Below are positions 5,476-61,333 of a stretch of DNA of 64,000 nucleotides, in pieces (within the stretch, counting starts at the first letter, position 1; each line of letters starts with the position of its first letter). The DNA is from an uncultured Ginsengibacter sp. (lineage in GTDB: Bacteria; Bacteroidota; Bacteroidia; Chitinophagales; Chitinophagaceae), in assembly GCA_964627765.1 (NCBI GenBank), contig CAZVKO010000067.1:21649-85648 (forward strand), in the 5' to 3' direction. The position numbers and the translations under genes were made by a program. Under the pieces are notes generated by a model that was not told where the DNA came from, made no database searches, and saw only the letters and a program-made list of their open reading frames with translations.

Positions 5476-6114
5476 CTATTTTATTACCGGCGTATACACC
5501 AGCGTAATGCCAAGGCTGAGGCTGTGCGCCGAAGCGTTCGCAGTGCTGCCGGGCGTGAGATAATTAATCAACCCAAAATCCAAAGCCGCTCTCACCATCA
5601 GGTTATTATTTACTGTATATCCTGCCATCAGGTCTGCGCCAATATCCATTCTTTTGAGATCGTCATTATCAGGGTCGTTGCCAAAATTGATCTTGATCTT
5701 ATCGGCACTAACATCCTCTCGTTTGTAATGTCCGCCAATTCCCAAAGCAAAGAATGGCCCTAATCCAAATTTCCATTTTGCATCTTTGTCCGCCGGCTTC
5801 AGGATAATGTTGACCGGAATTTTTAAAAATGATACCCGAACGGATGCTTTTGTATCATAGATAACAGGTTTATATCCCTCACTCGAATACAACAGCCTCG
5901 CCTCCACTGCAAGCCCGGAAGGGGAAAGAGGAAGATCAGCGTAAGCCCCCAACTGCAGGCCCGGCAGCGGCGACCCGTGGGGGTCGCCTCCCGGATCTTT
6001 TACAAAAGCGCCTGACACATTAACGCCCAACTCTGCACCATATTCTACTTTTTGTGCACAAACATGATAGGATGAAAAAGAACAACAGGCGATAAAGATG
6101 AATAAATATTTCAT
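5476..6114 (-). CDS. outer-membrane beta-barrel (porin-family) protein
   Basis: N-terminal signal peptide (MKYLFIFIACCSFSSYHVCAQ), alternating beta-strand pattern and Gly/aromatic-rich composition. Confidence 0.7.
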   Translation of the reverse strand: MKYLFIFIACCSFSSYHVCAQKVEYGAELGVNVSGAFVKDPGGDPHGSPLPGLQLGAYADLPLSPSGLAVEARLLYSSEGYKPVIYDTKASVRVSFLKIPVNIILKPADKDAKWKFGLGPFFALGIGGHYKREDVSADKIKINFGNDPDNDDLKRMDIGADLMAGYTVNNNLMVRAALDFGLINYLTPGSTANASAHSLSLGITLVYTPVIK

Positions 6115-7851: not shown

Positions 7852-9060
7852 ATGCAACCGGCTACTGCGAAAAACCGGATCCGGTCGATCGATATACTGC
7901 GCGGCGTGGTAATGGTAATAATGGCGCTCGATCATATCCGGGATTATTTATATAAAATTGACATCAACAAGTCAGGAGATTTTTCACTGAATCCTACCAA
8001 CATGAAAACCACCTATCCCATGTTGTTTTTTACAAGATGGATCACCCACTTTTGTGCTCCTGTGTTCGTGTTCCTTGCGGGCACCTCCATTTATCTTATG
8101 TGTCAGCGAAAGCCCAAAGCAGCCATTAGCGGATTTGTGATCAAACGCGGCTTGTGGCTTATTTTCACAGAGCTGTTTATTATCACATTTGCATGGACTT
8201 TTAATCCATTCTTTAACCTTTTTATTCTGCAGGTAATCTGGGCCATCGGTATCAGCATGATCGTATTAGGCCTGCTGATTCATTTGCCTTACAAGATAAT
8301 ACTCGCATTAGGTGTTATAATTATAGCCGGGCATAATTTACTCGACATTCCTTCTATCGCTCATTCATTAAAAGGAAATGTCGCAGCTGATCTGATATAT
8401 TATTCAGATTTCACTGTCTGCAAAATTGCCGGGCAACACTACCTGCTGATTGTGTATTCGTTTTTACCGTGGACAGGGGTAATGCTGCTCGGATATGGTT
8501 TTGGAAAATTATATGAAAAGGGAGCGGATGAAATGCTCAGAAGAAAAATTTTGATTTTTTCAGGTGGGGGACTTATTATTTTATTTATTGTTTTACGTGT
8601 TATCAATGTATATGGCGACCCCACCCCATGGTCGGTGCAGCCGCGTGGAAGCATCTATACTTTTCTGTCTTTTTTAAATGTAAATAAATACCCGCCGTCT
8701 TTAATGTATGTGTGCATGACACTCGGACCAGGCATTTTATTCCTTGCGTTCATCGAAAAGGTTCAAAACAGGTTTGCTGCTATAATGAATATATATGGCC
8801 GGGTACCGATGTTATACTATGTCGTTCATCTTTACATTATTCATATCATCGGTATTATCGTATTCTTTGCACAGGGATTTGGAACAAAGGATATCGTGTC
8901 GCCGGGTATCCCGTTTCTGTTTAAGCCTAATGGCATAGGGTTCGGCTTGTGGGGCATTTATGGCATATGGATATTGGTAGTAATAATATTATATCCTCTT
9001 TGTAAAAAATATAGCCGGTATAAGAGCACACATTTTAGCTGGTGGCTGAGCTATTTGTAG
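7852..9060 (+). CDS. DUF1624 / heparan-alpha-glucosaminide N-acetyltransferase-like integral membrane acyltransferase
   Basis: N-terminal RIRSIDILRGVVMVIMALDHIRDY signature and a polytopic hydrophobic profile across 402 aa. Confidence 0.72.
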   Translation: MQPATAKNRIRSIDILRGVVMVIMALDHIRDYLYKIDINKSGDFSLNPTNMKTTYPMLFFTRWITHFCAPVFVFLAGTSIYLMCQRKPKAAISGFVIKRGLWLIFTELFIITFAWTFNPFFNLFILQVIWAIGISMIVLGLLIHLPYKIILALGVIIIAGHNLLDIPSIAHSLKGNVAADLIYYSDFTVCKIAGQHYLLIVYSFLPWTGVMLLGYGFGKLYEKGADEMLRRKILIFSGGGLIILFIVLRVINVYGDPTPWSVQPRGSIYTFLSFLNVNKYPPSLMYVCMTLGPGILFLAFIEKVQNRFAAIMNIYGRVPMLYYVVHLYIIHIIGIIVFFAQGFGTKDIVSPGIPFLFKPNGIGFGLWGIYGIWILVVIILYPLCKKYSRYKSTHFSWWLSYL

Positions 9061-9255
9061 TAGTATTTTTATAAGTACTGTTTTTAAATATCCCTATTTT
9101 ACAAATAATAAACGGGAAAAGGCATCAAAACGATTATTTGGTTCTTATATTATTACTGAAACCGTACTAAATATGCACTCCTGTTTTAAGTTCCGTTTTT
9201 GTGATATATTTTCGTATTTATTTAGGTAACCCTGTCTCTCTAACTACCAGTATAA

Positions 9256-10638
9256 TTGACCAGTTTGACTACCGCTAAAACAGCCTATAGAAGATTGCCG
9301 GTTTGGCTTTCAAGAGCCCTGCTATCCGGATCTGTTCTGCTCGCTTTAGCCTTAATAATCTTTTTCGTCAATCGGGGCCCGGAAAATACGTCTAAATACA
9401 AAGGCCATCGGAAAGTAACCATAAAAAAGATCGGTAACCAATATCGGTTTATGGTAAATGACACCCCTTTTCTGGTGAAAGGCGGTGCAGGATACGCGCA
9501 TGTTAAAGAACTTGCAGAATGTGGCGGTAATACCATGGTCTGTTGGGATACCACCAAATTAAAAGATCTGCTTAAGCAGGCGGCGGAGTATAATGTTGAA
9601 ATTATCATTGGTCTTGATATACCGGGAGGTGACAATACTTCGTTTTATAATGACCCGCAGCAGGTGATGTCGCTATATAATTCATACATCCATATTGTTA
9701 ATAAATATAAAGATGACCCTCATGTGCTCGCATGGTGCCTGGGCAATGAGCTCGCCATGCCTTTTTCGCTGCTGCCAACGCCCTTTTACAGAACCTACAA
9801 CAAAATTTTGCAACATATACATGATATAGACCCCAATCACCCGGTAGCTACCTCCGTAATAAATGTTTTCAAAAGAGGAATCATGATGATCAAATGGCGG
9901 ATACCGGCTCTTGATTTCTATTGTATTAATATATATAATAGCCTTAAAACAATTCAACACCAGCTCAATCTTATCAAATTATTCTGGAACGGCCCTTACC
10001 TGATCGGTGAATGGGCTCCGAATGCCGCCTGGGAGGCCCCCATGAATATCTGGAAAGCCCCCATCGAATATACCAGTACAAAAAAAGCAGTGGAGTACTC
10101 GAAGTTCTATGAAAGATATATGCCCCGGAAAGATCCGAGATTCCTGGGTTCCGTAGTTTTCTATTGGGGTTGGCGACAGGAATATACTTATACCTGGTTT
10201 AGCATTTTTAATAATGACGGTGTACCCACAGAAGTAGAGGAGTCTCTCTCCGACTGCTGGAAAGATACGGTTACTGAGCACAGCTCCCCCCAATTGAAAT
10301 ATGAACTTATAGATGGGCAACAGGATCATGATACGATCATCCTGAGCACCGGTTCTAAACATTACGCCTCTGTAACGCTGAAAAATCCATCTGGCAATGA
10401 TTCTCTAAGGTATTGCTGGCAAATTTTGAAGGAAGACTGGGCCTTGTTTTGGGGGGAAAGATATGGTTTTTTAAAAAGGGCGCCTGCGGTACCACACCTC
10501 TTTGCTGACAGTACGCTCCGGGCAACCTCTTTTACAGCTCCCTTAAAAGAAGGGCCCTACCGGATATTCGTGACTGTATATAATCGTAAGGGATATTGTG
10601 CTACTGCCAATATTCCTGTTTATGTAGTAGAAAGATGA
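9256..10638 (+). CDS. membrane-anchored clan GH-A-like glycoside hydrolase with a C-terminal beta-sandwich domain
   Basis: TTG start and one N-terminal TM helix. The TIM-barrel-like region carries WCLGNE (candidate acid/base Asn-Glu) and LIGEWAP (candidate nucleophile Glu). It is paralogous to the C-terminal part of the next gene. Its stop overlaps the next gene's start within ATGA. Confidence 0.6.
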   Translation: MTSLTTAKTAYRRLPVWLSRALLSGSVLLALALIIFFVNRGPENTSKYKGHRKVTIKKIGNQYRFMVNDTPFLVKGGAGYAHVKELAECGGNTMVCWDTTKLKDLLKQAAEYNVEIIIGLDIPGGDNTSFYNDPQQVMSLYNSYIHIVNKYKDDPHVLAWCLGNELAMPFSLLPTPFYRTYNKILQHIHDIDPNHPVATSVINVFKRGIMMIKWRIPALDFYCINIYNSLKTIQHQLNLIKLFWNGPYLIGEWAPNAAWEAPMNIWKAPIEYTSTKKAVEYSKFYERYMPRKDPRFLGSVVFYWGWRQEYTYTWFSIFNNDGVPTEVEESLSDCWKDTVTEHSSPQLKYELIDGQQDHDTIILSTGSKHYASVTLKNPSGNDSLRYCWQILKEDWALFWGERYGFLKRAPAVPHLFADSTLRATSFTAPLKEGPYRIFVTVYNRKGYCATANIPVYVVER

Positions 10639-13600
10639 ATTTTAAAATAAACCCGATACCGCCCCCTGCACGAAAAGAAAAAACTACTCTCAGGCTGATG
10701 ATACTTATAGGTGTGCTGTCTATGGCGTTTTTCCTGTATAACCTTTTTCAGAAGAATGTCATAAGCTCCTATCCTCTGTATGTATTGCTGATGATAACCA
10801 TGATCTACTATTGTTTGAAATACCTGCACGAATGGTATCATTATTTTTCAATATCAGTAGATCTTCCTCCGCCGCCGGGAATGAGCTATACGGTAGACGT
10901 ACTAACTACCTACTGCGCAGGCGAACCATTTGACATGCTGGAGCAGACGCTGATTGCAATACAAAATATCAGCTATCCCCATACCGCCTGGTGCTGCGAT
11001 GAGGCTGATGATCCCAATGTTAAAAAGTTATGCGATCGCCTGGGCGTTAAGCACATCACCAGAACCGATAAGAAAGACGCCAAGGCAGGAAATATCAACA
11101 ATGCGCTTCGTTTTGCTACGGGCGATCTTTGTATAATACTGGACCCGGATCATGTACCGGCGCCTGAGTTTATAGATGTGCTGGTTAGTTGTTTTGATGA
11201 TCCGTCAGTCGGGTTTGTACAAATTGTGCAGGCGTATTACAATCAAACAGAATCATTGGTGGCAAAAGGCGCTGCGCAGCAAACTTACCAGTTTTATGGT
11301 CCCATGATGATGAGCATGAATTCATACGGAACCGTACAGGCTATCGGTGCCAATTGTACATTCAGAAGAGCGGCACTGGACTCAATTGGAGGACATGCCA
11401 GCGGTCTTGCTGAAGACATGCACACTGCAATGAAGCTTCATGCAAAAGGGTGGCGTTCCCTGTACATACCTGTTGTTTTAACACGTGGATTGGTACCGGC
11501 CACCATGTCATCTTATTATAAGCAGCAATTAAAATGGAGCAGGGGTACCTGGGAGCTGCTCCTGATTACTTATCCAAAACTATTCACCAAATTTACCTGG
11601 AGACAAAAGCTGCATTACTTCATTTTGCCATTTCATTACTTATGCGGCCTGATTTTTTTTATTAACTTCCTGATACCCGTCATTTGTTTGTTTACCGGCG
11701 CCATCCCTTTGCAAATGGACATTTTTGACTTTATCCTGGCAACCTTTCCCTTATTTGTGATGATGACGCTCATCAGGCATTACGCACAAAAATGGGTGGC
11801 AGAAGAAAACGAGCGGGGATTTCACGTAGTCGGTGGTATTCTGCAAATTGGCGCATGGTGGGTACATACCGTAGGTTTTGTTTATACTATTTTCAGAAAA
11901 AAGGTTCCTTATATCCCCACGCCCAAAAACGATGAGGACTCATTGCCGTTCTTACTAAGCCTGCCGAATATTCTTGTGGCGGTAATCTCATTAACAGCTA
12001 TTATATACGGACTGCTGAACGACTTTAGCCCCTATACCGTATTTATGATTGCATTGGCGGGCATGCAAATACTTTTCATGGCTTTTAATTTATCAATTTC
12101 CGGTTACACGAGACGGATGCGAAGGTTAAAGACTATTGCCAGGAAAGTAAGAAACCGAAGCTGGATCGTTATAAAAGTTCACGGCTTCCTGAGAAGCTAT
12201 TCATTGGCGCTTTCAACACTACTCATAATTTCTTTTTCCTTTGCCTTTTGGAAAAAACAGCAATTATCAGAATTTCTTCCCGGGCCTTTAGCCGGATTAA
12301 AAATTTTCTACAAAGGAATAAATACCGGTTATAATGCGACCGATAAAAATACCGCTGATTCTTTTTTTTCAAATGAAGTCAACAAAAATAAAATTGCCAT
12401 TATTTCATCACAGGTTCCGTGGGGCCCCGGCCAAAGCAATAATATAAATACAGCTTATTTAACCGGTATTTATAAGCAGCACGCCATCCCGCTGCTCATC
12501 TGGACACCGTACCGGGAAGATCCTGCGGGCAATTCCAAAGCGGATTCATCGGTGATTCAAAGTATTTTATCCGGTAAATACAATGCATCTTTTCTTTCTT
12601 TTGCAAAACAAATTGCTGCATTAGGCAAGCCCGTATTTCTGACTTTGGGAACAGGACAAGGAAAGAACCGGCAAGTCTTATTTAATTATGCCAGCTACAA
12701 CCCGCCAGATTTTATAGCTGCCTGGCGCTATGTGCATACACTATTAGACAGTGCAGGTGTAGAAAACGCTATCTGGGTTTGGAATACGCCGGACGCATCC
12801 TCTGTTACAGATTATTTTCCGGGTGAGAATTACGTCGATTGGCTCGGAGTAAATATATCGGATACAGGCAAAGTGCCGGAAACAAATTTGTTCAGTTTTG
12901 ATACACTTTACAGGCCCTACCATACCCTGCATCTTTTTAAATCAGGAATGCCCGTAATGTTAATGAAAATCGACGGCCTGCAGGCAAAAAACCAGGAATG
13001 GTGGAACAATGCCTGGCAAAGTATAGATACCGCATTCACAGAAATAAAGGCTGCGTTAGTTGAATATAACGCTGTAAAAGATCAACCCGTTGCTTCCAAT
13101 GCCCGGCTCAATATAAAGACTGTTTTTGCACATGCACCGGATGCGTCATTGCCTGTTGATGTGAATACCATAAACTGGTTGAAAAAAAGTAATGCAGTGG
13201 TCTCCCGCCGTTTTCCGTTCCCGATTAAAGGTGTAATATATGATAAAGGGATCCCCTGGTTCAGGAACAGGTATACCCTGGAGCTAAGTACTATTGAGGC
13301 TGATTTAAAAGATATGGAAAGCATTGGCATCAACACAATTGAAAGAACAATGCCGGGAGTATATGACCGTGGCATCGGCAAAGTGTTGATGTCAGACAAT
13401 ATGCATTTAATTCCGCGGTTTTGGTTCCCGGCAGCCCCGCAGGCAGTAGCTGACGACAATAAGATGAAGGAGCAGGAAGAAAAGATACTTCGGGTAATCA
13501 GGGAAAATGTTCACAAAAATTATGTTACTGCATGGGATCTGGGCGATGATATATTGTACCATCTTTCATTGGAAACATACAAGCCTGATTATTTTTTTTA

Positions 13601-14327
13601 CGAACAAAAATATATTGCGTGGCTGTCTAACCTGTGTCGTGCAATACGGAAAATAGATAATACGAGGCCCATATTGATGGATTTACATTGGGATGCTAAA
13701 GGCCGAAGCCGGTTCTCATACTATAAAGCTCATGTACCGGAAATAGATATCTACATGCTCGTGGCAGATAAGAAATACAGGAAGGGTCTTAATGAACCCC
13801 TTGAGAAAGATATGGCATGGGGGCAGGTGCCGGTAGCGCTTTGGTCAAGCCTGCCTTCAATTGCACAATCGGGAATAGTACCCGCCTGGCAGGACAATGA
13901 AACCACAAATTATGTGAAGCTCAATGGAATTATTGACCTGGATGGCAGAAAGAAAGACCTGTTTCATGTGGTTTCAGCAACATGGGGACATGCCACGCAT
14001 GATTCAACCGAAATGCCCCGGGTTAAAATTCTGAGATCTGCTGAGATTGCCATTCCCGGTGAAAAGATTATTTATCACCTGATGCACCATGAAGCCGATT
14101 CGGCGTGGCATATTTATACAGGTGATGAAAAAAATACCCGCTTTGAATGGTATCTCGTAAAACTGGATCAATATGGCAATACCATGTTTATCAAGCGGGC
14201 TGGCAATCAACCCTACATTGAACTGACTATCCCGGATAAACCGCTGTATTATGAATTGTATGTGGAAGTTATTTCCGGAAAGTATGTAACCACATCACAT
14301 TCCACTTTAAACACCCCGCTCGAGTAA
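10635..14327 (+). CDS. GT2 processive beta-glycan synthase (BcsA/NodC-like) fused to a ~680-aa extracytoplasmic GH26-like + GH-A-like + beta-sandwich region
   Basis: GT2 motifs: CDEADD, KAGNINNAL, LDPDH, GLAEDMH and QQLKWSRG (a QxxRW variant). Multiple TM helices lie before and after the catalytic domain. The tail carries the GH26-type signature AIWVWNTPD...YFPGENYVDWLGVNISD, followed by a second TIM-like region. The start is set at M14 (10635), which overlaps the upstream stop. Confidence 0.85.
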   Translation: MNFKINPIPPPARKEKTTLRLMILIGVLSMAFFLYNLFQKNVISSYPLYVLLMITMIYYCLKYLHEWYHYFSISVDLPPPPGMSYTVDVLTTYCAGEPFDMLEQTLIAIQNISYPHTAWCCDEADDPNVKKLCDRLGVKHITRTDKKDAKAGNINNALRFATGDLCIILDPDHVPAPEFIDVLVSCFDDPSVGFVQIVQAYYNQTESLVAKGAAQQTYQFYGPMMMSMNSYGTVQAIGANCTFRRAALDSIGGHASGLAEDMHTAMKLHAKGWRSLYIPVVLTRGLVPATMSSYYKQQLKWSRGTWELLLITYPKLFTKFTWRQKLHYFILPFHYLCGLIFFINFLIPVICLFTGAIPLQMDIFDFILATFPLFVMMTLIRHYAQKWVAEENERGFHVVGGILQIGAWWVHTVGFVYTIFRKKVPYIPTPKNDEDSLPFLLSLPNILVAVISLTAIIYGLLNDFSPYTVFMIALAGMQILFMAFNLSISGYTRRMRRLKTIARKVRNRSWIVIKVHGFLRSYSLALSTLLIISFSFAFWKKQQLSEFLPGPLAGLKIFYKGINTGYNATDKNTADSFFSNEVNKNKIAIISSQVPWGPGQSNNINTAYLTGIYKQHAIPLLIWTPYREDPAGNSKADSSVIQSILSGKYNASFLSFAKQIAALGKPVFLTLGTGQGKNRQVLFNYASYNPPDFIAAWRYVHTLLDSAGVENAIWVWNTPDASSVTDYFPGENYVDWLGVNISDTGKVPETNLFSFDTLYRPYHTLHLFKSGMPVMLMKIDGLQAKNQEWWNNAWQSIDTAFTEIKAALVEYNAVKDQPVASNARLNIKTVFAHAPDASLPVDVNTINWLKKSNAVVSRRFPFPIKGVIYDKGIPWFRNRYTLELSTIEADLKDMESIGINTIERTMPGVYDRGIGKVLMSDNMHLIPRFWFPAAPQAVADDNKMKEQEEKILRVIRENVHKNYVTAWDLGDDILYHLSLETYKPDYFFYEQKYIAWLSNLCRAIRKIDNTRPILMDLHWDAKGRSRFSYYKAHVPEIDIYMLVADKKYRKGLNEPLEKDMAWGQVPVALWSSLPSIAQSGIVPAWQDNETTNYVKLNGIIDLDGRKKDLFHVVSATWGHATHDSTEMPRVKILRSAEIAIPGEKIIYHLMHHEADSAWHIYTGDEKNTRFEWYLVKLDQYGNTMFIKRAGNQPYIELTIPDKPLYYELYVEVISGKYVTTSHSTLNTPLE

Positions 14328-14611
14328 CCTGCAAGTATTATTGCTTATTTAATTATTTCAAAGAAGGCAAATTCAAAAAAGATCCAATAGCGCAGATGAG
14401 CTTTTATATAATGTATTTAAAAAATGCTTTTCCCGGGATCATCCTATTTGCAATGATCGTTCAAAAGATATTTTGAAAGCAAACAGAATGCACGTACGAT
14501 TTTCTGCAATACATTTTCGGGGATTCATCAGGCAGCCACAGGCAATTACTATTTAAAATATTCATCCCGGCAATACGTTAGCTACTGAGCACATCAAATG
14601 TAACCGACCCG

Positions 14612-15463
14612 ATGAAGAAAATATTTACTGTCTTTTTTCTACTCCCGCTTTTCGCCATGTCACAAAATTTTCATTTTGCAGGCCGCCTCGGCCTTGCGGG
14701 CTACCAGGGCGACCTGAAAGCAAAAGGGATTACTCTTTCGCAAACGAAATTGATGGGTTCGCTGGGTGCGGAATATGACCTGTCTGAACACGTGGTCGCA
14801 AGAAGCTTTATCAGCCTTGCCACACTGCATGCAGATGATAAAAAAGGTACTCCTGTCATGCAGCAACGAAACCTCAACTTTACTTCCGGCATTATCGACT
14901 GGGAACTCTCCGCGCAATATAGCCTGTTTAGCCTTAATGAACACTGGTGGACGCCCTATGCATTTGCAGGGGTTGGCATTTATCATTTTAACCCCTATAC
15001 AAAAGACAGCGCCGGAAAAAAGACTTACTTACCGCCATTGAGCACCGAAGGGGAAGGTTTTATACCCGGCGTAAAGAATTACCATCTTACACAATTCAGC
15101 ATTCCCTTTGGAATAGGTGCTGATTATGCGCTCAACGAAGATATGCGGCTGGGGTTAGAGTTTGGCTATCGCAAATTATTTACAGATTATGTGGATGACG
15201 TAAGCAAAAACTATGTAGATAAAACAGCCTTATTAAACGCGCGCGGTACTGAGGCAGCGGCACTTGCCTATCGTGGCACCGGCACTTACCCGGCTGCAGG
15301 CGTAATGCGGGGCAATAACCACAAACAAGACGGTTATTATTTTTTCGCACTAACTTTCACTGTCCGCTATTTCTTCGATAAGTATAAACAAATAGCTGGT
15401 CTTTATCAGTCTAAAAAAGATAAGCGTGTAGGATGCCCTGCCACAAGACATGTGCTGCAATAG
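14612..15463 (+). CDS. DUF6089-type outer-membrane beta-barrel protein
   Basis: Signal peptide followed by GRLGLAGYQGDL, the family's characteristic N-terminal strand, and a beta-barrel periodicity. Confidence 0.7.
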   Translation: MKKIFTVFFLLPLFAMSQNFHFAGRLGLAGYQGDLKAKGITLSQTKLMGSLGAEYDLSEHVVARSFISLATLHADDKKGTPVMQQRNLNFTSGIIDWELSAQYSLFSLNEHWWTPYAFAGVGIYHFNPYTKDSAGKKTYLPPLSTEGEGFIPGVKNYHLTQFSIPFGIGADYALNEDMRLGLEFGYRKLFTDYVDDVSKNYVDKTALLNARGTEAAALAYRGTGTYPAAGVMRGNNHKQDGYYFFALTFTVRYFFDKYKQIAGLYQSKKDKRVGCPATRHVLQ

Positions 15464-17213: not shown

Positions 17214-17777
17214 CTATAGCTCCCCGGAAGATGGACCCGGCGGAGTTGCTTCATCCGGCTCCCCGTCACGCATGCTCCTTCTTTCTGCCAATGCTATGAT
17301 GCGTTTCCGTTCGCCTATTATTAATAATGCAATTACAATTTTTACTGAAGGTATTATCAGGCCCGACAGAGAAGGACTTGTTGTCCTGAATCGTTCGTGC
17401 GACTCCTGGAAATAGTTATAGAGCATATTGCAAAAAACAGGAACGGTATCTGTTAATACATAACCGGCGAGTATAATCAATGCAATATTCAAAACATTTG
17501 ACGATGAAATATCGAACGAAAGATATTCATCGCTCAACTGGGGCTCCAGCTTCAGCAGCTTTATGATAGACGCCGTCTTAAAAATAAGCGCATACGCTAT
17601 AGCTATATACAACGCCATTATCAATAGCACCACGATTAATGAATCTGTATCAATTTTACCAAAACCGGCTCCCGCAGATAGAATAGGAATCAGATAAGGC
17701 AGCTGGAACAGTATATCCTTAACAATAAATAATCCAAATACTTTTATGATGATATCAAAAAGATCATGAAGCTTCAT
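17214..17777 (-). CDS. hypothetical polytopic membrane protein
   Basis: 187 aa with about 4 hydrophobic segments. No recognisable motif. Confidence 0.5.
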   Translation of the reverse strand: MKLHDLFDIIIKVFGLFIVKDILFQLPYLIPILSAGAGFGKIDTDSLIVVLLIMALYIAIAYALIFKTASIIKLLKLEPQLSDEYLSFDISSSNVLNIALIILAGYVLTDTVPVFCNMLYNYFQESHERFRTTSPSLSGLIIPSVKIVIALLIIGERKRIIALAERRSMRDGEPDEATPPGPSSGEL

Positions 17778-17894
17778 GGTGAGTTTTTAGAATGAAATAT
17801 TTTACATGCGATGATGCAGCTATGGTTAACAATATTATTAAAAATTAGCCACTCGCCATGATGTTTGGCAAGTCAATCGTTTTGTGGAATAAAA

Positions 17895-18371
17895 TTATTT
17901 CCTCCTCTCCAGCAATGGCAGCCCCAAAGCCCCGGCCAGGGCCTTTGCGGCAGCATCTCCTTCCCTGCTAAACGGCCATACAAACAAACAGGCTATCGGG
18001 TGTTGGGCGCGTATTTGCCGAATCGCATCCAGTGTGGCTTGCCGCGCTATTCCTTTGCGCCGGTACTCCTCCAGCACCATGGCAGAGCACAGATAAATAC
18101 AATCATATTGTGCACCCACAGGAGTTTTATTATACAATTCCTTCTCTGATATTTTTCCGCTGATAAAGTCATTCATTAAATCACGGGTGGTGGGTATCAA
18201 TAATATCCAGCAGTACGGACCATTATTGTCGGACCTCTCCGATACTGATGCAGGGTGTAATTGTCGTAATTTTTTCAAAACAGTTTCGTCCACATCTAAT
18301 TGCTCAGGATCCTGTTTTACAGCAAACACTTCATCTGCCAGTTGCAGCATTCTTTTAAAATTGTCGGCCAT
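17895..18371 (-). CDS. GNAT-like acetyltransferase (tentative)
   Basis: The core ...VLEEYRRKGIARQ... resembles the acetyl-CoA binding Q/R-x-x-G-x-G/A segment of GNAT proteins. Confidence 0.5.
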   Translation of the reverse strand: MADNFKRMLQLADEVFAVKQDPEQLDVDETVLKKLRQLHPASVSERSDNNGPYCWILLIPTTRDLMNDFISGKISEKELYNKTPVGAQYDCIYLCSAMVLEEYRRKGIARQATLDAIRQIRAQHPIACLFVWPFSREGDAAAKALAGALGLPLLERRK

Positions 18372-18522
18372 AACCCAAAATTAGGTTGAAACATCCTGTA
18401 GCCGGTAATTATATTTAGTACCCGGTTGCAGTACCCGATATATAAGTTTCCGGTGTAGTCATCCGGATATCGGATTGAATAATCTTGGTCATCTTGCGTA
18501 GTTTTGGAAAAATTACCCCAAT

Positions 18523-20331
18523 ATGCCGCAAACCCGCCAGTTGGCCGTGATTATGTTTACCGATATAGTTGGATATACTTCATTGATGGGAGATGACGAG
18601 CAGCAGGCGCTGGAAATATTAAACAGGAACAGGTATATTCAAAATCCGGTTATAGAAAAATACCATGGCAAGCTGATAAAGGAACTGGGAGATGGTATTT
18701 TGGCAAGCTTCCATTCGGCCACCGAAGCGGTAAATGCCGCCAAAGAAATAATTGAAAGATGCGGCATTGAAAACAATTTTCAGCTTCGCATAGGACTGCA
18801 TTTAGGTGAAGTGGTGCTCGATAATGATGATGTTTTTGGTGATGGCGTAAATGTGGCTTCCCGTATACAGTCTGTTGCAAAACCCGGGGCCATCTATATC
18901 TCTGAAACCGTATACCACAATATTGCAAATAAAAAGGATATAAAAACGCGGTTCGTTAAAGAAGAGCTGCTCAAAAACGTAAAGGCGCCCGTTAAAGTAT
19001 ATGAAGTGATTACATCGTCAAATGAAAATGTCCGGGATAATAATGATGAAAATATTTCCACCCTGCAAATGAAGAGTATAGCTGTAATGCCGTTTACCAA
19101 CATGAGCAATGACGTTGAGCAGAATTATTTTTGCGATGGCATTTCTGAAGAGATCCTTAATACCCTTACCCATCTCGACCGTCTTCGCGTCATTTCACGA
19201 ACTTCTTCTTTTGCGCTTAAAAATAAAAATATTGATGCACGCGAAATTGGCAGGCTGCTGGATGTGCAATCACTCCTGGAAGGCAGTGTACGAAAAGCGG
19301 GAAACCGCCTGAGGATCACTACCAATCTCGTGAATACCAGCGATGGTTCTCATTTATGGTCTGACCGGTACGACCGCGAACTGGAAGATATTTTTTCAAT
19401 CCAGGAAGACATTGCAGCCAATGTAGCTACTGCTTTAAAAGGGTTCTTGACCAGCAAAGAGAAGCAGGATATCCGCCGCCCTGAGATCAATGTTGAGGCT
19501 TATGAATATTTCCTGAAAGGCCGCGAATTTTTTCACCGGCTTGATCATACTCATGCAATCAGGTGCTTCAGGGATGCCATCGCACTGGATGCTAACTATG
19601 CGCTGGCATATGCGGGTCTTGCAGATGTGTATGCATGGCGGTACGAGTGGGAAGGCTCAAAAAGTGAGGATTTGGAAGAAGCGAAAAAAAACAGCCTCAA
19701 AGCGCTCTTTATTGCTCCCGATCTTCCCGAAAGTCATATTTCACGCGGGTTTGTTTTGTCGCAGAGCAAGAATTATGCAGAGGCAGAAAGAGAATTTAAC
19801 CAGGCCCTGCTACTCAACCCCCATTCTTACGATGGCCATTATTTATATGGAAGAGTATTGTTTGCCAAAGGAGATATTGAAAAGTCAGCAGAAATGTTCG
19901 GTAAGGCGGCAGCCATAAGACTGGAAGACTATCAAAGTGTAGTAATGCAGGCGCAGGCATTAAAAGTGCTCGGGCGGAATACCATTCCCCTTACTGTAGA
20001 AGGGATAGCAAGGGCGCGGAAACAACTGCTGCTGAAACCTGACGATGCAAGAATTCTTTCTTTGGTTTCATGCAACCTGTATGAAATCGGGGAAAAGGAA
20101 GAAGCTTTTGACTGGATAGAAAAGGCGCTGACCCTTTACCCGGAAGATACAGGCGTTCTGCTCAATGCAATATGTCTTTTTGCAAAAGCCGGCGAAAAAG
20201 ATAAAGCACTCGATATTCTGGAAATAGCTGTAAATAAAGGCTATGGGAAAAAGGACTGGATTGAACATGATCCGGATTACGATAATCTCAGAAATGAGCC
20301 AAGGTTCAAAGCCCTGCTCGCCAGGTTATGA
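18523..20331 (+). CDS. class III adenylate/guanylate cyclase domain protein with TolB-N-like and TPR regions
   Basis: N-terminal FTDIVGYTSLMG...ELGDGILASF...GDGVNVASRIQS (cyclase homology domain). The middle segment is IAVMPFTNMSNDVEQNYFCDGISEEI. The C-terminal half is TPR-like. Confidence 0.85.
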   Translation: MPQTRQLAVIMFTDIVGYTSLMGDDEQQALEILNRNRYIQNPVIEKYHGKLIKELGDGILASFHSATEAVNAAKEIIERCGIENNFQLRIGLHLGEVVLDNDDVFGDGVNVASRIQSVAKPGAIYISETVYHNIANKKDIKTRFVKEELLKNVKAPVKVYEVITSSNENVRDNNDENISTLQMKSIAVMPFTNMSNDVEQNYFCDGISEEILNTLTHLDRLRVISRTSSFALKNKNIDAREIGRLLDVQSLLEGSVRKAGNRLRITTNLVNTSDGSHLWSDRYDRELEDIFSIQEDIAANVATALKGFLTSKEKQDIRRPEINVEAYEYFLKGREFFHRLDHTHAIRCFRDAIALDANYALAYAGLADVYAWRYEWEGSKSEDLEEAKKNSLKALFIAPDLPESHISRGFVLSQSKNYAEAEREFNQALLLNPHSYDGHYLYGRVLFAKGDIEKSAEMFGKAAAIRLEDYQSVVMQAQALKVLGRNTIPLTVEGIARARKQLLLKPDDARILSLVSCNLYEIGEKEEAFDWIEKALTLYPEDTGVLLNAICLFAKAGEKDKALDILEIAVNKGYGKKDWIEHDPDYDNLRNEPRFKALLARL

Positions 20332-23279: not shown

Positions 23280-24695
23280 ATGTCCAACCGATTCAAACTT
23301 TTATTTATGCCTGCCAGCAAAGCACCCGGCGTATATACAGAAGAATTTTCCCAACCACCTTCGATCACTTCGGTGGAGACTGCTATTCCGGTCTTTATAG
23401 GATATACTGAAAAGGCACAAAAAGCTCAGCCCGGAGACCTGGCATTTGTTCCCGTAAGGATAGAGTCTGTTGCAGAATATGAACAGTTTTTCGGACTTGC
23501 ACCCTATGAACATTCCATCGGGGTAATTATAGATGCCACGCAATCGCCAATTGCAAAAGCAAGCGCTTCTGTACATAGCCCTGCACCTTTTTTGGTCTAC
23601 TATTCATTACAGCTGTATTTTGCTAATGGCGGAGGGCCTTGTTATATCGTGTCAGCAGGTAATTACACCAATAACGGGCTTATTGACAAAACTGTATTAT
23701 CAAATGGCCTTAATGCAATTAAGCAGTTTAATGAAATAACGCTTATAGTTTTTCCGGATGCTATCCGTTTGCCTTCGGCAGATCTTTATTATAGCCTGTA
23801 CAAAGAGGCATTACAACTCTGTGCGGATCAGCCATGCCGGTTCACCATAATGGATGTATGGATGGATAATGATTTGAGTATTGATAACATCCAAACACTC
23901 CGCAAAAGCGACCTGGGCAGCAGCAGTGTACTGCAATACGGGGCAGCATATTACCCGTTATTAAATACTACACTTAACTATCGGTATAATGAAGAAGATG
24001 TGCTGATAAATGCCCGGGGTGATACTTCTCTTTCAGGTACTCTTGCCAGCCTTAAAACAAAAAATAATCTTTGTTATCAGCAGGCGGTCGCCGCCATTGA
24101 AGACATTCCGCTTGTATTACCGGTGGCCCCTGCCGCCGCAGGAATATATGCCACCACAGACAATAACCATGGCGTGTGGAAAGCTCCGGCCAATATCAAT
24201 ATTAACAGTGTGAATAGTCCGGTAGCAGTGCTCACGGATGCACAACAGCAAGTATTAAATATAGATCCGGACACGGGCAGGTCTGTTAATGCCATCCGCA
24301 GTTTTCCGGGACGCGGCAATGCTATTGTATGGGGGGCAAGAACACTGGCCGGTAATGATAACGAATGGAGGTATATTTCTGTACGAAGATTTGTCAGCAT
24401 GATAGAAACGTCTGTAAGAGCAGGGGCTGCAGCATTTGTTTTTGAACCAAATGATGCTAATGTATGGGCCAATATCAAGACGATGATTCAAAACTATCTC
24501 ACAGAACAATGGAAGGCCGGCGCATTGGCCGGAGATTCTACGAAGGAAGCTTTCTTTATACATGCAGGCCCTGGTGAAACAATGACCGCCCAGGATATTT
24601 CGGAAGGAAATCTGATCGTTGAAATAGGACTGGCGGTACTAAAGGCGGCTGAATTTATTATTATCAGGTTTACACAAAAAATGCAGGGAGCGTAA
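23280..24695 (+). CDS. contractile-tail (phage / eCIS-type) sheath family protein
   Basis: N-terminal KAPGVYTEEF...IPVFIGYTEKA. C-terminal AAGIYATTDNNHGVWKAPAN...AIRSFPGRGNAIVWGARTL...WRYISVRRF...FVFEPND is the conserved sheath C-terminal domain pattern. The probable true start is the ATG at 23307. Confidence 0.85.
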   Translation: MSNRFKLLFMPASKAPGVYTEEFSQPPSITSVETAIPVFIGYTEKAQKAQPGDLAFVPVRIESVAEYEQFFGLAPYEHSIGVIIDATQSPIAKASASVHSPAPFLVYYSLQLYFANGGGPCYIVSAGNYTNNGLIDKTVLSNGLNAIKQFNEITLIVFPDAIRLPSADLYYSLYKEALQLCADQPCRFTIMDVWMDNDLSIDNIQTLRKSDLGSSSVLQYGAAYYPLLNTTLNYRYNEEDVLINARGDTSLSGTLASLKTKNNLCYQQAVAAIEDIPLVLPVAPAAAGIYATTDNNHGVWKAPANININSVNSPVAVLTDAQQQVLNIDPDTGRSVNAIRSFPGRGNAIVWGARTLAGNDNEWRYISVRRFVSMIETSVRAGAAAFVFEPNDANVWANIKTMIQNYLTEQWKAGALAGDSTKEAFFIHAGPGETMTAQDISEGNLIVEIGLAVLKAAEFIIIRFTQKMQGA

Positions 24696-43729: not shown

Positions 43730-45256
43730 TTAATCTACATACCCATGTACCCCCATTTCGGGTATATCCAAACCAGCCTGTTCATCTGCAGCATCCGATC
43801 TGAGACCGATAGGTGTGGCTTTACATATCTTAAAGAAGGTATACATAACAATAAAAACAAAAACAAAGCAAGTAAGCCCCCCAATTAATTCAGCAAAAAA
43901 TTGACCTGCATCCCCATAAAATAAACCTTTTACAGTGCCGGGCACTCCATTCCATCCATCACCATATTTTCCATCAGCAAATAATCCTAAAGAAAGAACA
44001 CCCCAAAATCCATTTACACCGTGTACCGCAACAGCACCTACAGGGTCATCAATCTTCAATTTCCTATCCATAAAATTATACCATGCAACTACCAATATTC
44101 CGGATACTGCGCCTATTATAATAGCAGAGAGGGAGGTAACAAAAGCACAGGGAGCCGTAATAGCAACAAGGCCGGCAAGCATACCATTTGCCATCATTCC
44201 GGGATCCCATTTTTTTGTGGTCGCTTTTACATAAAGAGTTGCCAAAAGAGTACCTGATGCACTTGCCAGCATAGTATTAACTGCAACAATTGAAATACGA
44301 AGATCGGTACCGGCGAGAGTAGAGCCAGGATTGAAACCAAACCAACCGAAAGCAAGAATAAAAGTACCCAGTAAGGCCATGGGTATATTATGTGCTGGTA
44401 TAGTATTGACAGACCCATCTTTACCATATTTACCGATACGGGGTCCTATTACAATGGCCCCTGCCAATGCCGCTACCCCGCCTACTTCATGCACAACTGA
44501 AGAACCTGCAAAATCAACATGACCATGACCTAATCCAAAGTTCACTCCTAATTGAGAAAGCCATCCACCGCCCCAAACCCAGTTGCCAAAAATAGGGTAG
44601 ACAAACATTGATATGAAAAATCCAAATACAATAAATGATTTAAATTTCCACCTTTCTGCCATAGCCCCTGTGGGGATAGTGGCGGTGGTATCCATAAATA
44701 CCATCTGGAAAAGGAAAAGCGTGAATACGCCCACATCATAAACACTGCTGTTCAGGAAATATCCTGCAGCCCCAATAACACCAAAATCTTTACCAAACAA
44801 ATGCCAGACAATTTCGTGGCTCGATGCTACTCCTCCGCCAAGAGTAGCCGGATTCAATGCGCCGCCAAACATAAATGCAAAGCCGCAAATCCAAAAACCA
44901 AGCAAGCCCAATATATACACCAGAAAATTCATCGCCATGGTATGCGCTACGTTTTTCTTCTGAGTAAACCCAGTTTCTACCAAAGCGAAACCTGCCTGCA
45001 TAAACATTACAAGGAATCCTGTAATGAGGGTCCACATAATGTTGATGGCAATTTTGTTGTGACCTGCCTGGTCACCTATTTCCTGTAAGGTGGGCTTACC
45101 GGCAGTGGCCGCTGTTACATCATTGATAGTACCCGTCCTGGTTCCTGCAGCATCCTGCGCTATCGAAGGCAGTGCTATCAGAACAAGCGCCATGAGCATT
45201 ACAGGAATTAATACCCTAAATGCCCTTTTGTTAAAAAGTTTTTCAGTTAATCTCAT
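43730..45256 (-). CDS. amt: ammonium transporter (Amt family) with signal peptide
   Basis: FMQAGFALVETG, DFAGSSVVH, and VHGVNGFWGVLSLGLFA. Confidence 0.92.
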   Translation of the reverse strand: MRLTEKLFNKRAFRVLIPVMLMALVLIALPSIAQDAAGTRTGTINDVTAATAGKPTLQEIGDQAGHNKIAINIMWTLITGFLVMFMQAGFALVETGFTQKKNVAHTMAMNFLVYILGLLGFWICGFAFMFGGALNPATLGGGVASSHEIVWHLFGKDFGVIGAAGYFLNSSVYDVGVFTLFLFQMVFMDTTATIPTGAMAERWKFKSFIVFGFFISMFVYPIFGNWVWGGGWLSQLGVNFGLGHGHVDFAGSSVVHEVGGVAALAGAIVIGPRIGKYGKDGSVNTIPAHNIPMALLGTFILAFGWFGFNPGSTLAGTDLRISIVAVNTMLASASGTLLATLYVKATTKKWDPGMMANGMLAGLVAITAPCAFVTSLSAIIIGAVSGILVVAWYNFMDRKLKIDDPVGAVAVHGVNGFWGVLSLGLFADGKYGDGWNGVPGTVKGLFYGDAGQFFAELIGGLTCFVFVFIVMYTFFKICKATPIGLRSDAADEQAGLDIPEMGVHGYVD

Positions 45257-45306
45257 TTTGTTAAGGTTTTTGTTGTGTGTTATAAATTGTTTAGATTTTA
45301 AAAAAG

Positions 45307-46368
45307 TTAGAAATGATAGGTTGCAGCCAGTAAAGCGGTAACGGTTGATTGGGTGCCTGTGCCGTCAGTTTTACTAAAAATTTCTTTTTGAGCAGCGTCT
45401 AACCTCAATTCAGGAATAATGGTGAGATTGTTAATGCGGATGTTCGGAGACAAGGTTACATCGAAGATGCTGGTGCCGGTTCCAAAAACAATGGCATGGT
45501 CATCATTGAAGTACTCGCCTCTGAGCGTGATGCCAAATATGGTAGTGGGATCGAGGTTGAGATATACAGCAGAGCCCCACCAGCTATTGGAAGTGCCGCC
45601 TTTGGGTTCATACATCTGCACGGTACCGTTATAACCAACGCTGAATTTATCGGTTACTGTTCCGGTCAATACCACATCAAACTGTGTTTTTGAAAAAGCA
45701 TAATTGTATGATCCCTGGTAATTGAGATATACTTTCACCTTATCATTTTTGGTAGCGGTGCTATACTGGGCTATCAGGTATTTGGGAGAAGCGGTAGTAG
45801 TTACATTATCTGTTTCGTTGGCAACTCCCAGCATTAAAGCGCTTTTCTTTCCGGTGGCGATTTGAACTTTCAGGCCCGTATGAGAAAATGGCCCGTAAGA
45901 AAACATGTAGTCCATGCTATAGTTGCGGTTCAGATAAGCATCGGTCACTTCGTAGCCTACGTGTGTGGCCCATTTACCCAATGTAAACGTTACTTTATCA
46001 CTCACCGCATAATTGAGGTATGCCTGCTTTACTGCAAAAAGAGTTGGATGATCGGGATTGGCATAAGAAAATTCTTCTGCCCTGCGGCCAAATCCGAGGT
46101 CGATGGTGGCAGAAGCTTTACCAAAAGAATGATCGGCACGAATGCTGGCCATGCCCAGCTCGAATGAGTTTTGTGAATTGGTAAAGCTTGTGTAATTATT
46201 ATACACTCCTTGAGGCGGGTCATTGAAATTGAACCTGTAGTACCCGTCTACAGAACCGGTAATGGTAGGAGCGGGTGACGTGGGTGCAGGTTTTGTAGTA
46301 TCTGATTGCCCGTACGAGAAAATAAAAGCTACAATTGCCGTGAATACTAAGAAAATTTTTCTTAACAT
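45307..46368 (-). CDS. outer-membrane porin-like beta-barrel co-located with amt
   Basis: Signal peptide, alternating strand pattern and a C-terminal ...LLAATYHF. It lies 50 bp upstream of amt. Confidence 0.68.
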   Translation of the reverse strand: MLRKIFLVFTAIVAFIFSYGQSDTTKPAPTSPAPTITGSVDGYYRFNFNDPPQGVYNNYTSFTNSQNSFELGMASIRADHSFGKASATIDLGFGRRAEEFSYANPDHPTLFAVKQAYLNYAVSDKVTFTLGKWATHVGYEVTDAYLNRNYSMDYMFSYGPFSHTGLKVQIATGKKSALMLGVANETDNVTTTASPKYLIAQYSTATKNDKVKVYLNYQGSYNYAFSKTQFDVVLTGTVTDKFSVGYNGTVQMYEPKGGTSNSWWGSAVYLNLDPTTIFGITLRGEYFNDDHAIVFGTGTSIFDVTLSPNIRINNLTIIPELRLDAAQKEIFSKTDGTGTQSTVTALLAATYHF

Positions 46369-46452
46369 TGTTTTAGATTTAAAGATTAATAATGAAAGGG
46401 GTTTAACTAATTGACTTTTGCCGAAGTTGAAACCAGTTAAACTCCTTTCCTT

Positions 46453-46468
46453 TTGGTGATATCACCAA
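46453..46468. promoter_or_regulatory. perfect 16-bp palindrome TTGGTGAT|ATCACCAA upstream of the porin-amt genes
   Basis: Read directly from the sequence. It lies about 85-100 bp upstream of the porin ATG at 46368. Confidence 0.4.
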
Positions 46469-46887
46469 TAATTTTTACCAGGCAACGTATTTCTATTCTG
46501 TTTTCATTGCGCAAGACATTTGAGATTCTTACCATACTGATCGTGAAAGACCAGGACGCAGGGTTTTGGATTTTCAGGGTACGTAAAAGACTAAATAAAA
46601 TTTAATGATAATATATTATTATCGTATCTATTAACAATAAATAATCACTTTCATTCATCAAACATATTGAATTTTTGCAAAAATAAATATAACTATACAA
46701 ATATTTTTTTTAATAATGTAAATATATTTTTATAAAATATACATTGATTATAAGCATATTAATTCAATAACTAACAATGATATAAATTTTGTGTTGATAA
46801 ATATATTTTATATATTATATTAAATAATAATATAAATAACATAAGAATGACTTGCCAGTATTTAAATACAGTCATGGAGTTGATCCG

Positions 46888-48360: not shown

Positions 48361-48399
48361 TCAATTGTATTAATCGCGTAATGAAAATGTTCCTGTTCG

Positions 48400-56351: not shown

Positions 56352-56352
56352 C

Positions 56353-57261: not shown

Positions 57262-57375
57262 GAGCCTCCCTAAATCCCTCCAAAGGAGGGACTTTGGCAA
57301 GAGGTTTTATTATAAACAAATAACTTCTAAATTTTAAAAGCAACATCCTCCTCTTCGGGGAGGGTAGTAGAGGCC

Positions 57376-58617: not shown

Positions 58618-58657
58618 TTTTTTTAATTATATACTCTACTCAAAAAGTAGACTAATA

Positions 58658-59596: not shown

Positions 59597-59617
59597 ATAA
59601 CTCCGAAAAATTGCAGA

Positions 59618-61312: not shown

Positions 61313-61333
61313 TTATAAAACTAACGGTAACGA

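Follow-up and report, generated by a model that had tools for sequence, protein, structure and literature searches.

A GH158 hydrolase gene and the gene of a BcsA-like synthase with a hydrolase-derived tail form a two-gene unit in Bacteroidota that probably makes beta-glucan

We analysed a 64,000-nucleotide stretch of DNA (the window) from an uncultured Ginsengibacter sp. (contig CAZVKO010000067.1), in which four co-directional genes between positions 7852 and 15463 had been described as one exopolysaccharide locus built around a very large glycosyltransferase family 2 (GT2) synthase. All four open reading frames (ORFs) are present at the positions given in this initial annotation. The feature that is conserved in other genomes is a two-gene unit, in which a gene for a family 158 glycoside hydrolase (GH158) is followed by the synthase gene. 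This unit is widespread in Bacteroidota, while the acyltransferase gene upstream and the PorG-like barrel gene downstream are chance neighbours. The two-gene unit probably makes and trims a beta-glucan. In the reading that we favour, the tail of the synthase is non-catalytic and the GH158 enzyme acts as the cutter; taken as a whole, this is a reading towards which we lean with modest confidence. The four genes are arranged as follows, with lengths in amino acids (aa):

7852..9060, + strand: HGSNAT/acyltransferase-3-like membrane protein (Pfam); a neighbour only, outside the conserved unit
9256..10638, + strand: stand-alone GH158 hydrolase of 460 aa if translation starts at the TTG at 9256 (PDB matches, N-E...E residues)
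10635..14327, + strand: GT2 synthase with a predicted periplasmic tail, 1230 aa, ATG start (Pfam, PDB, homologs)
14612..15463, + strand: DUF6089/PorG-like small outer-membrane barrel, 283 aa (Pfam); a neighbour only, outside the conserved unit

The stop codon of the GH158 gene and the start codon of the synthase gene share 4 nt in an ATGA at 10635-10638, an overlap that had already been noted and that we confirm. Homologs of the synthase are numerous, with 1663 sequences at 90% clustering and at least 577 matches among GTDB species-level genomes. In the source databases they are named only 'glycosyltransferase' or 'cellulose synthase'. From these relatives we kept 80 loci for a comparison of neighbourhoods, most of them from Bacteroidota (Chitinophagaceae, Sphingobacteriaceae, Flavobacteriaceae and Cytophagales) and a few from Balneolia, Verrucomicrobiota and Planctomycetota. 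Searching the 80 loci with the four window proteins (tblastn) finds a GH158 homolog adjoining the synthase in most Bacteroidota loci, and homologs of the acyltransferase and the barrel in none (0/80). In 25 cases the GH158 gene precedes the synthase gene on the same strand, and in 23 of these it overlaps the synthase start or ends no more than 4 nt away from it; 10 further copies are divergent to the synthase and 8 lie downstream. The closest relative, at 63% identity, has the same overlapping pair, and its contig carries neither the acyltransferase nor the barrel. All-against-all clustering of the 2118 ORFs in these loci reveals no further conserved neighbour. Pfam scans of 20 immediate flanking genes, drawn from 11 diverse loci, return unrelated functions, with neither the acyltransferase nor the barrel among them. 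An outer-membrane exporter was not found among the conserved neighbours in the 80 loci, nor were the BcsB, BcsC and GH8 BcsZ families found among these neighbours or among the scanned window ORFs of at least 250 aa. The larger window ORFs include no other candidate exporter for the unit either. Across related genomes, only the GH158 and synthase genes occur together.

Other hydrolase genes of beta-glucan type are seen near the unit in some related loci. In L056, a GH16 gene with SKN1/KRE6 similarity (8621-9823, + strand) lies directly upstream of the GH158-synthase pair. A 572-aa protein containing a GH26 domain is encoded beside the unit in L003 (6232-7950, - strand), and the closest relative, L081, carries a stand-alone GH26 gene about 6 kb downstream (17771-18754, + strand).

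The neighbourhood data bear on the proposal that the four window genes form a single exopolysaccharide locus, in which the acyltransferase would O-acylate the polymer, the hydrolase and the synthase tail would trim it and the DUF6089 barrel would export it. Pfam confirms the identities given to the two outer genes. ORF 7852-9060 matches HGSNAT_cat (PF07786; 2.2e-12, 47.4 bits versus a cut-off of 22), with Acyl_transf_3 below the Pfam cut-off, and ORF 14612-15463 matches DUF6089 (PF19573; 26.4 bits versus a cut-off of 23.2) and OMP_b-brl. In favour of such a locus, AT3-type acyltransferases modify some polysaccharides, all four genes point the same way, and the + strand shows no terminator-like site between them. 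Scans for sigma-70 promoters, terminators and strict Bacteroidetes promoters gave counts at chance level and nothing informative in the intergenic gaps. Nevertheless, we regard a four-gene locus as very improbable. The acyltransferase and the barrel are missing from all 80 loci, from the relative with 63% identity and from the 20 flanking genes scanned, and they are set apart in the window by gaps of 195 bp (acyltransferase to GH158 gene) and 284 bp (synthase to barrel gene), compared with the 4-nt overlap of the GH158-synthase pair. The barrel is small and PorG-like (283 aa; 95 bits to the NCBIfam model of PorG from the type IX secretion system, below the cut-off of 130), unlike known polysaccharide porins, and the tail lacks catalytic residues, as described below. 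The acylation and outer-membrane steps that had been assigned to the neighbours lack support, since these genes never accompany the synthase elsewhere. The exopolysaccharide label is not supported either, as no exporter is conserved nearby and the product may remain in the periplasm.

Sequence and predicted structure support the synthase as a BcsA-like processive GT2 enzyme. Pfam assigns Glyco_trans_2_3 (7.6e-23) and Cellulose_synt (2.6e-9), and the core matches BcsA in the PDB by sequence with an E-value of 2.5e-36. Foldseek confirms the GT2 structural similarity, aligning the core to BcsA with E 4e-24 over 508 columns at a root-mean-square deviation of 3.8 Å; the matches span 508-554 columns. 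The GT core is about 25% identical to BcsA (tblastn against plasmids, comparing BcsA with other rhizobial synthases), a figure that did not discriminate. The model for CelA, TIGR03030, reaches 3.5e-48 but only 164 bits against a cut-off of 699, and PRK11498 reaches 126 bits against a cut-off of 992. A PilZ domain was not found in the synthase by the Pfam scan. The GT2 motifs that had been read from the sequence are all present, namely K150AGNINNAL, L169DPDH (D170-P-D172-H), A259-E260-D261 with Ala for Thr, and Q297QLKW. K150AGN, D170-P-D172 and E260-D261 are invariant in 52 family members. QQLKW, in which Lys takes the place of the Arg of the acceptor-binding motif QxxRW, occurs throughout the family except for one QQIKW, and the exchange of Arg for Lys is conservative. 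The segment R421-K431, which includes the gating-loop-like Y426IPTPK, is invariant or nearly so (alignment A1).

An AlphaFold2 (AF2) model of residues 1-852, with a mean predicted local distance difference test score (pLDDT) of 81.5, places transmembrane (TM) helices on both sides of the catalytic domain, as had been proposed. The membrane-embedded and cytoplasmic parts are predicted to be:

10671..10847, + strand: TM1-TM2 (aa 13-71), ahead of the catalytic domain (AF2 model of aa 1-852, loop charges)
10893..11594, + strand: cytoplasmic GT-A (GT2) domain and interface helix, aa 87-320 (Pfam, TIGR03030, PDB BcsA)
11598..12263, + strand: channel-forming region with TM3-TM7, aa 322-543 (AF2 model, Foldseek, loop charges)

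Two helices precede the GT domain in the model; four more, together with interface helices, follow it, and TM7 (aa 523-543) comes last. The order within the channel region is TM3-TM4, an interface helix with Y426IPTPK, TM5-TM6, a basic loop and TM7. The basic loop (aa 490-522) holds 11 Lys and Arg residues, no acidic residue and two short amphipathic helices, and the cytoplasmic loop at aa 388-438 is also basic. The short loops predicted to face outwards (38-45, 355-362 and 463-465) contain one positive charge in all, located in 38-45. We infer seven helices with the N-terminus inside and the C-terminus outside. Because there are seven helices and the GT domain is cytoplasmic, residues ~545-1230 would be periplasmic. 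The helix count and the positive-inside rule are in line with the extracytoplasmic tail suggested earlier, some 690 aa of which follow the last helix.

Compared with BcsA (4hg6, 4p00, 9b8v), the synthase shares the GT-A domain with its D, DxD, ED and Q-x-x-R/K-W motifs, the interface helices, the membrane channel and a gating-loop-like motif, which reads YIPTPK here and FxVTxK in BcsA. It differs in having two N-terminal helices instead of four, an additional C-terminal helix, QQLKW for QxxRW and the 690-aa periplasmic tail. There is no PilZ domain, so a switch responding to cyclic di-GMP (c-di-GMP) is missing, and BcsB, BcsC and a GH8 BcsZ are not encoded nearby.

The tail is predicted to fold as one compact unit (AF2 model of residues 546-1230; pLDDT 85.4, predicted TM-score 0.85) with the following parts:

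12309..13064, + strand: tail module 1, GH26-like TIM barrel, aa ~559-810 (PF02156, CtLic26A, Foldseek)
13227..14018, + strand: tail module 2a, GH158-like TIM barrel, aa ~865-1128 (GH158 hidden Markov model, Foldseek)
14019..14324, + strand: tail module 2b, C-terminal immunoglobulin (Ig)-like beta-sandwich, aa ~1129-1230 (AF2, Foldseek)

The initial annotation had recognized about 680 residues with a GH26-like signature, a second TIM barrel and a beta-sandwich, which the Pfam GH26 match, the AF2 model and Foldseek bear out. PF02156 (GH26) covers only 57 aa of the synthase (aa 697-753; 2.1e-6, 27.8 bits, cut-off 20.2). The best sequence and structure match of module 1 is CtLic26A, the GH26 beta-1,3-1,4-glucanase (lichenase) of Clostridium thermocellum, with E 1.6e-6 over 229 aa and, by Foldseek against 2cip_A, E 4e-14 and a TM-score of 0.72. 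Module 1 differs from CtLic26A in that both catalytic glutamates are replaced and in its location inside a membrane synthase. The GH26 module is nearest to lichenase and beta-1,3-xylanases, not to cellulases.

Foldseek also aligns the tail with GH158 enzymes, with BuGH158 (6pal_A) at E 4e-14 and others up to 1e-12, at TM-scores of 0.55-0.62 over about 425 columns. These alignments (6pal, 9p25 and GH158(Pro), the last with a TM-score of 0.62) take in the barrel together with the Ig-like sandwich, whose strands lie at tail residues 584-679 in the AF2 model. A hidden Markov model (HMM) built from 56 stand-alone GH158 proteins matches the window synthase at aa 937-1042 and 1100-1216 (E 2.8e-6). 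It matches the last ~400 residues of other synthases at 3e-58 in some lineages and at 1e-9 to 1e-18 in others. The kinship of module 2 with GH158 is visible only through this family HMM and intermediate sequences; direct BLASTP of module 2 against the GH158 enzyme of the window gives no significant match, only a weak one in the Ig-like region. On profile and fold evidence, the second TIM-barrel region and the beta-sandwich are together a divergent GH158 module.

All four catalytic glutamate positions are substituted in the tail of the window synthase:

GH26-like acid/base: the HE motif is replaced by LGTGQG, with no acidic residue at T673/G674 (CtLic26A alignment, family comparison)
GH26-like nucleophile: Glu is replaced by K778 (CtLic26A alignment, family comparison)
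GH158-like acid/base: Asn-Glu is replaced by D971-D972 (family catalytic columns)
GH158-like nucleophile: Glu is replaced by Q1064 (family catalytic columns)

To judge from these residues, module 1 is a GH26-derived fold and not a functional GH26 enzyme. Because both glutamate pairs are lost and the fold is retained, the tail as a whole most likely has no catalytic role and guides or binds the nascent chain. It had been suggested that one polypeptide polymerises, translocates and then binds or trims its product. The BcsA-like synthase in this proposal stands, but trimming by the tail is unlikely, with all four glutamates gone. Trimming by the synthase itself would require the tail modules to act as enzymes through non-canonical residues. 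D972 offers an Asp at the GH158-like acid/base position, and the modules are well conserved, the tail being 51% identical to that of the nearest homolog. We nevertheless judge an active tail to be highly improbable. Both residues of both pairs are replaced: Lys takes the place of the GH26 nucleophile and Gln that of the GH158-like nucleophile, and nothing acidic is left at the GH26 acid/base position. Close relatives show free variation at these positions. In BuGH158, single alanine mutants at the equivalent positions are inactive (PMC7157763).

Catalytic residues are lost in a mosaic pattern across the family. We classed 52 family synthases with tails by their catalytic pairs:

GH26 pair intact, GH158 pair degenerate: 23/52
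GH158 pair intact, GH26 pair degenerate: 8/52
Both pairs intact: 3/52
Neither pair intact, including the window synthase and its four nearest relatives: 9/52
Short tail with a degenerate GH26-like module only: 9/52

By this comparison of sequences, the hydrolase folds persist when catalysis is lost. Tail length varies in two genera. In eight Pontibacter loci (L042, L044, L046-L048, L050, L051 and L061), the matches are confined to about 540 aa that comprise the GT core and the helices, and in Hymenobacter (L043, L052-L060) the synthase has about 830 aa and one degenerate GH26-like module. The GH158 gene is divergently transcribed in these loci with shortened synthases. Two other Pontibacter genomes (L019, L020) encode a full-length synthase with both catalytic pairs intact.

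The gene upstream of the synthase encodes a full-length GH158 protein. It matches GH158(Pro) (9oro) with E 4.3e-51 over aa 63-457 and BuGH158 (6pal) with E 1.8e-48 in an end-to-end alignment, in which the NE and E residues are conserved. The protein consists of an N-terminal membrane anchor, a TIM barrel and a C-terminal Ig-like domain. N164/E165 (LGNELA; nt 9745-9750) and E252 (LIGEWAP; nt 10009-10011) are intact and align with N136/E137 and E220 of BuGH158. The N-E...E residues are kept in all 56 stand-alone GH158s that we collected, 55 synthase-adjacent homologs and the one of the window. The start codon is uncertain, with in-frame TTGs at 9256, 9265 and 9295. Because no in-frame ATG precedes the membrane helix, only these TTGs could start a protein that bears the anchor. 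A hydrophobic anchor or a lipoprotein-type signal is present at the N-terminus of 46 of the 55 synthase-adjacent homologs, which fits an extracytoplasmic site of action. The claim of a membrane-anchored clan GH-A hydrolase is confirmed, with a single helix at aa 21-39. The clan assignment was correct for the upstream enzyme; what had been missed is that this enzyme and the second tail module belong to GH158. Since GH158 is a beta-1,3-glucanase family, this identity is the best clue to the polymer.

The catalytic residues of BuGH158, N136/E137 and E220, are essential by mutagenesis, in which single alanine substitutions abolished activity, and the enzyme is laminarin-specific (PMC7157763). GH158(Pro) does not cleave cello-oligosaccharides (PMC13195107). 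The characterised GH158s are beta-1,3- or beta-1,3/1,4-glucanases (PMC7157763, PMC13195107). BuGH158 (6pal) and GH158(Pro) (9oro) share with the stand-alone enzymes the full architecture of TIM barrel and Ig-like domain and the N-E...E residues, and with module 2 the fold. In contrast, the synthase-adjacent GH158s are only 31-42% identical to them, BuGH158 is encoded in a polysaccharide-utilisation locus (PUL), and GH158(Pro) is not encoded beside a synthase. We had considered GH158(Pro), which is processive, as the product of such a synthase module and rejected this, as its exact sequence (P0268) does not lie beside a synthase. GH158(Pro) and a 60%-identical relative (L083, L084) are each preceded by a gene for an AP_endonuc_2 protein (xylose-isomerase-like TIM barrel). 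The pairing is conserved in these two loci, and neither a synthase nor a PUL is found there.

The hydrolases also bear on whether the unit makes cellulose, a beta-1,4-glucan, with periplasmic modules that replace BcsB and BcsZ. The GT core has its best sequence and structure matches in BcsA, and the source databases annotate homologs accordingly. Even so, a cellulose synthase appears improbable. The score against TIGR03030 (164 against 699) is far from its cut-off, PilZ, BcsB, BcsC and GH8 were not found in the window, and the GH26 module has its nearest relatives in lichenase and beta-1,3-xylanases. The partner hydrolases are GH158s, of which GH158(Pro) leaves cello-oligosaccharides intact and BuGH158 is specific for laminarin.

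In the reading that we favour, the cytoplasmic GT2 site would use a UDP-sugar, most likely UDP-glucose, to polymerise a beta-glucan, and the synthase would push the chain through the channel formed by its own membrane helices. We propose both steps because of the homology to BcsA. The periplasmic tail of two former hydrolases may receive the emerging chain and guide or bind it without cutting, in a role comparable to that of BcsB. The intact, membrane-anchored GH158 enzyme, translationally coupled to the synthase, would then cut the chain, release it or set its length. This role is assigned to it because its residues are intact, its linkage to the synthase is conserved, and BcsZ, CcsZ and PgaB-type hydrolases offer an analogy. 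By association, beta-1,3-linked glucose is most likely part of the product, since every hydrolase module belongs to a family or subgroup active on beta-1,3- or mixed beta-1,3/1,4-glucan. GH16 and GH26 genes of beta-1,3-glucan type beside the unit in some loci also count in favour of this reading. The product may be a periplasmic glucan or oligosaccharide and not a secreted exopolysaccharide, because the unit has no outer-membrane exporter as a conserved neighbour.

Several points weigh against this reading. Our literature searches found no experimental work on any member of the family. The topology comes from a predicted model, read with the positive-inside rule, and the binding role of the tail is deduced solely from the loss of glutamates and the retention of the fold; non-canonical catalysis, for example through D972, could still take place. 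The specificity of the hydrolases is extrapolated from characterised enzymes that are only 31-42% identical, and most GH26 enzymes are mannanases. The closest solved relative of the synthase makes beta-1,4-glucan. The synthase and barrel genes may be co-transcribed in this genome, as no terminator was detected between them. A further caution is that GT2 sequence does not reveal linkage (PMC10237404).

The nearest precedent for the unit is the NdvB/Glt/'Orphan' group of GH17-GT2 proteins from Pseudomonas and Bradyrhizobium (PMC10237404), in which a BcsA-like GT2 domain and channel are fused to a periplasmic clan GH-A domain active on beta-1,3-glucan, and which likewise need no dedicated outer-membrane exporter. 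The initial annotation could not match the architecture to the Bcs, Pga, Pel, Alg, curdlan or hyaluronan systems, which holds, and it overlooked this precedent. In the NdvB type, the GH17 domain is N-terminal, whereas the modules here are GH26-like and GH158-like, C-terminal and catalytically degenerate, and a stand-alone GH158 is encoded beside the synthase. Pfam finds no GH17 match in the synthase, and the likeness to NdvB is one of design only.

This precedent raises a serious alternative, a machine of the NdvB or osmoregulated type, in which the chain would be cut, perhaps re-joined or cyclised, and retained as a periplasmic glucan. It overlaps with the reading that we favour; what sets it apart is how the product is processed and where it ends up. 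NdvB joins GH17 to a BcsA-like GT2 and makes cyclic beta-1,3-glucan (PMC10237404). Many tails in the family keep an intact GH26 or GH158 pair, retaining enzymes of clan GH-A can transglycosylate, and the lack of a conserved exporter near the unit agrees with retention. We nonetheless consider it rather unlikely. With the tail of the window synthase degenerate, transglycosylation would need the stand-alone GH158, the characterised GH158s are hydrolases, and the papers that we found report no periplasmic beta-glucans from Bacteroidota. A broader proposal is that Bacteroidota have in this family their equivalent of the proteobacterial periplasmic-glucan synthases, a self-contained inner-membrane machine that passes a glucan of beta-1,3 type straight to the hydrolase-derived modules fused to its exit. 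These modules would have switched repeatedly between enzyme and pseudo-enzyme across lineages, with a stand-alone GH158 kept as cutter. We put this forward tentatively, as a possible but doubtful extension.

Our favoured reading, of a synthase with a non-catalytic tail and a separate cutter, also recalls other known systems. BcsB and the fusions of BcsA with BcsB (e.g. in Zymomonas; PMC7112194) place a large, membrane-tethered, non-catalytic and sometimes fused periplasmic part that handles carbohydrate over the channel, as we propose for the tail. There is no relation in sequence or fold, as BcsB consists of carbohydrate-binding and flavodoxin-like domains and the tail described here of former glycoside hydrolases. 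BcsZ (GH8), CcsZ (GH5; PMC7710045) and the hydrolase domains of PgaB and PelA are, like the GH158 enzyme, operon-encoded hydrolases that act on the polymer of their own system outside the cytoplasm. The enzyme here differs from them in belonging to GH158, in being membrane-anchored or lipidated and in its translational coupling to the synthase; GH158 is otherwise known from catabolic PULs and metagenomic screens. The unit belongs to none of these groups, neither to the NdvB type, nor to the BcsA-BcsB fusions, nor to the systems of a synthase with its cognate hydrolase (Bcs, Pga, Pel, Ccs), because its hydrolase families, domain order, helix count, absence of PilZ, Lys in QxxRW and pseudo-enzyme state differ. 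Full-text literature searches returned no description of a GT2-GH26-GH158 synthase or of a biosynthetic role for GH158, and no characterised ortholog with this domain order. A three-gene cluster that includes a GT2 gene in Mucilaginibacter yixingensis YX-36 (ABZR88_RS04740-04750) has been reported, whose disruption was beneficial on several sugars and for gliding in transposon fitness experiments (PMC13440311). Mucilaginibacter carries the present synthase family (L008).

Much has been worked out about synthase-dependent polysaccharide systems in Proteobacteria and Firmicutes, and hardly anything in Bacteroidota. The present family comprises more than 1600 protein clusters and occurs in at least 577 species-level genomes. 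If our reading is correct, two genes would be enough to make a beta-glucan, one that is probably beta-1,3-linked, without a c-di-GMP receptor or a dedicated porin, and the unit would give a biosynthetic context to GH158, so far regarded as purely catabolic. Should the family be the counterpart of the periplasmic-glucan synthases, GH158 would play a large part in biosynthesis, and the Bacteroidota, known as glycan degraders, would make an unrecognised class of endogenous beta-glucans. The mosaic loss of catalysis within conserved GH26 and GH158 folds amounts to a natural experiment on how hydrolases become carbohydrate-binding pseudo-enzymes. The annotation 'cellulose synthase' is probably wrong for the family, and counts of carbohydrate-active enzymes that score its GH26 and GH158 modules as degradative would be inflated. 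These proposals are testable in cultivable strains of Chitinophaga, Pedobacter, Maribacter or Pontibacter.

The window contains several further genes. A small outer-membrane barrel of the OMP_b-brl_2 type (5476-6114, - strand) lies on the opposite strand to the barrel at 14612-15463 and is unlinked to the synthase elsewhere. About 4 kb downstream of the synthase, a 602-aa protein (18523-20331, + strand) combines an N-terminal adenylate/guanylate cyclase domain with tetratricopeptide repeats and may be a signalling protein; its gene is not conserved with the synthase in other loci. A 471-aa ORF (23280-24695, + strand) matches the C-terminal domain of a phage tail sheath (PF17482, 2.8e-12) and may derive from a contractile injection system or a prophage remnant. 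Two larger regions encode functions of nitrogen and sulfur assimilation and represent ordinary housekeeping context. The first (43730-52911, - strand) comprises an ammonium transporter, an OmpL-like porin and the small and large subunits of glutamate synthase. The second (56212-62992, + strand) comprises a protein of the phosphoadenosine phosphosulfate (PAPS) reductase family, possibly CysD, a CysN-like GTPase, a tetrapyrrole (corrin/porphyrin) methylase-family protein and the flavoprotein and hemoprotein of sulfite reductase.

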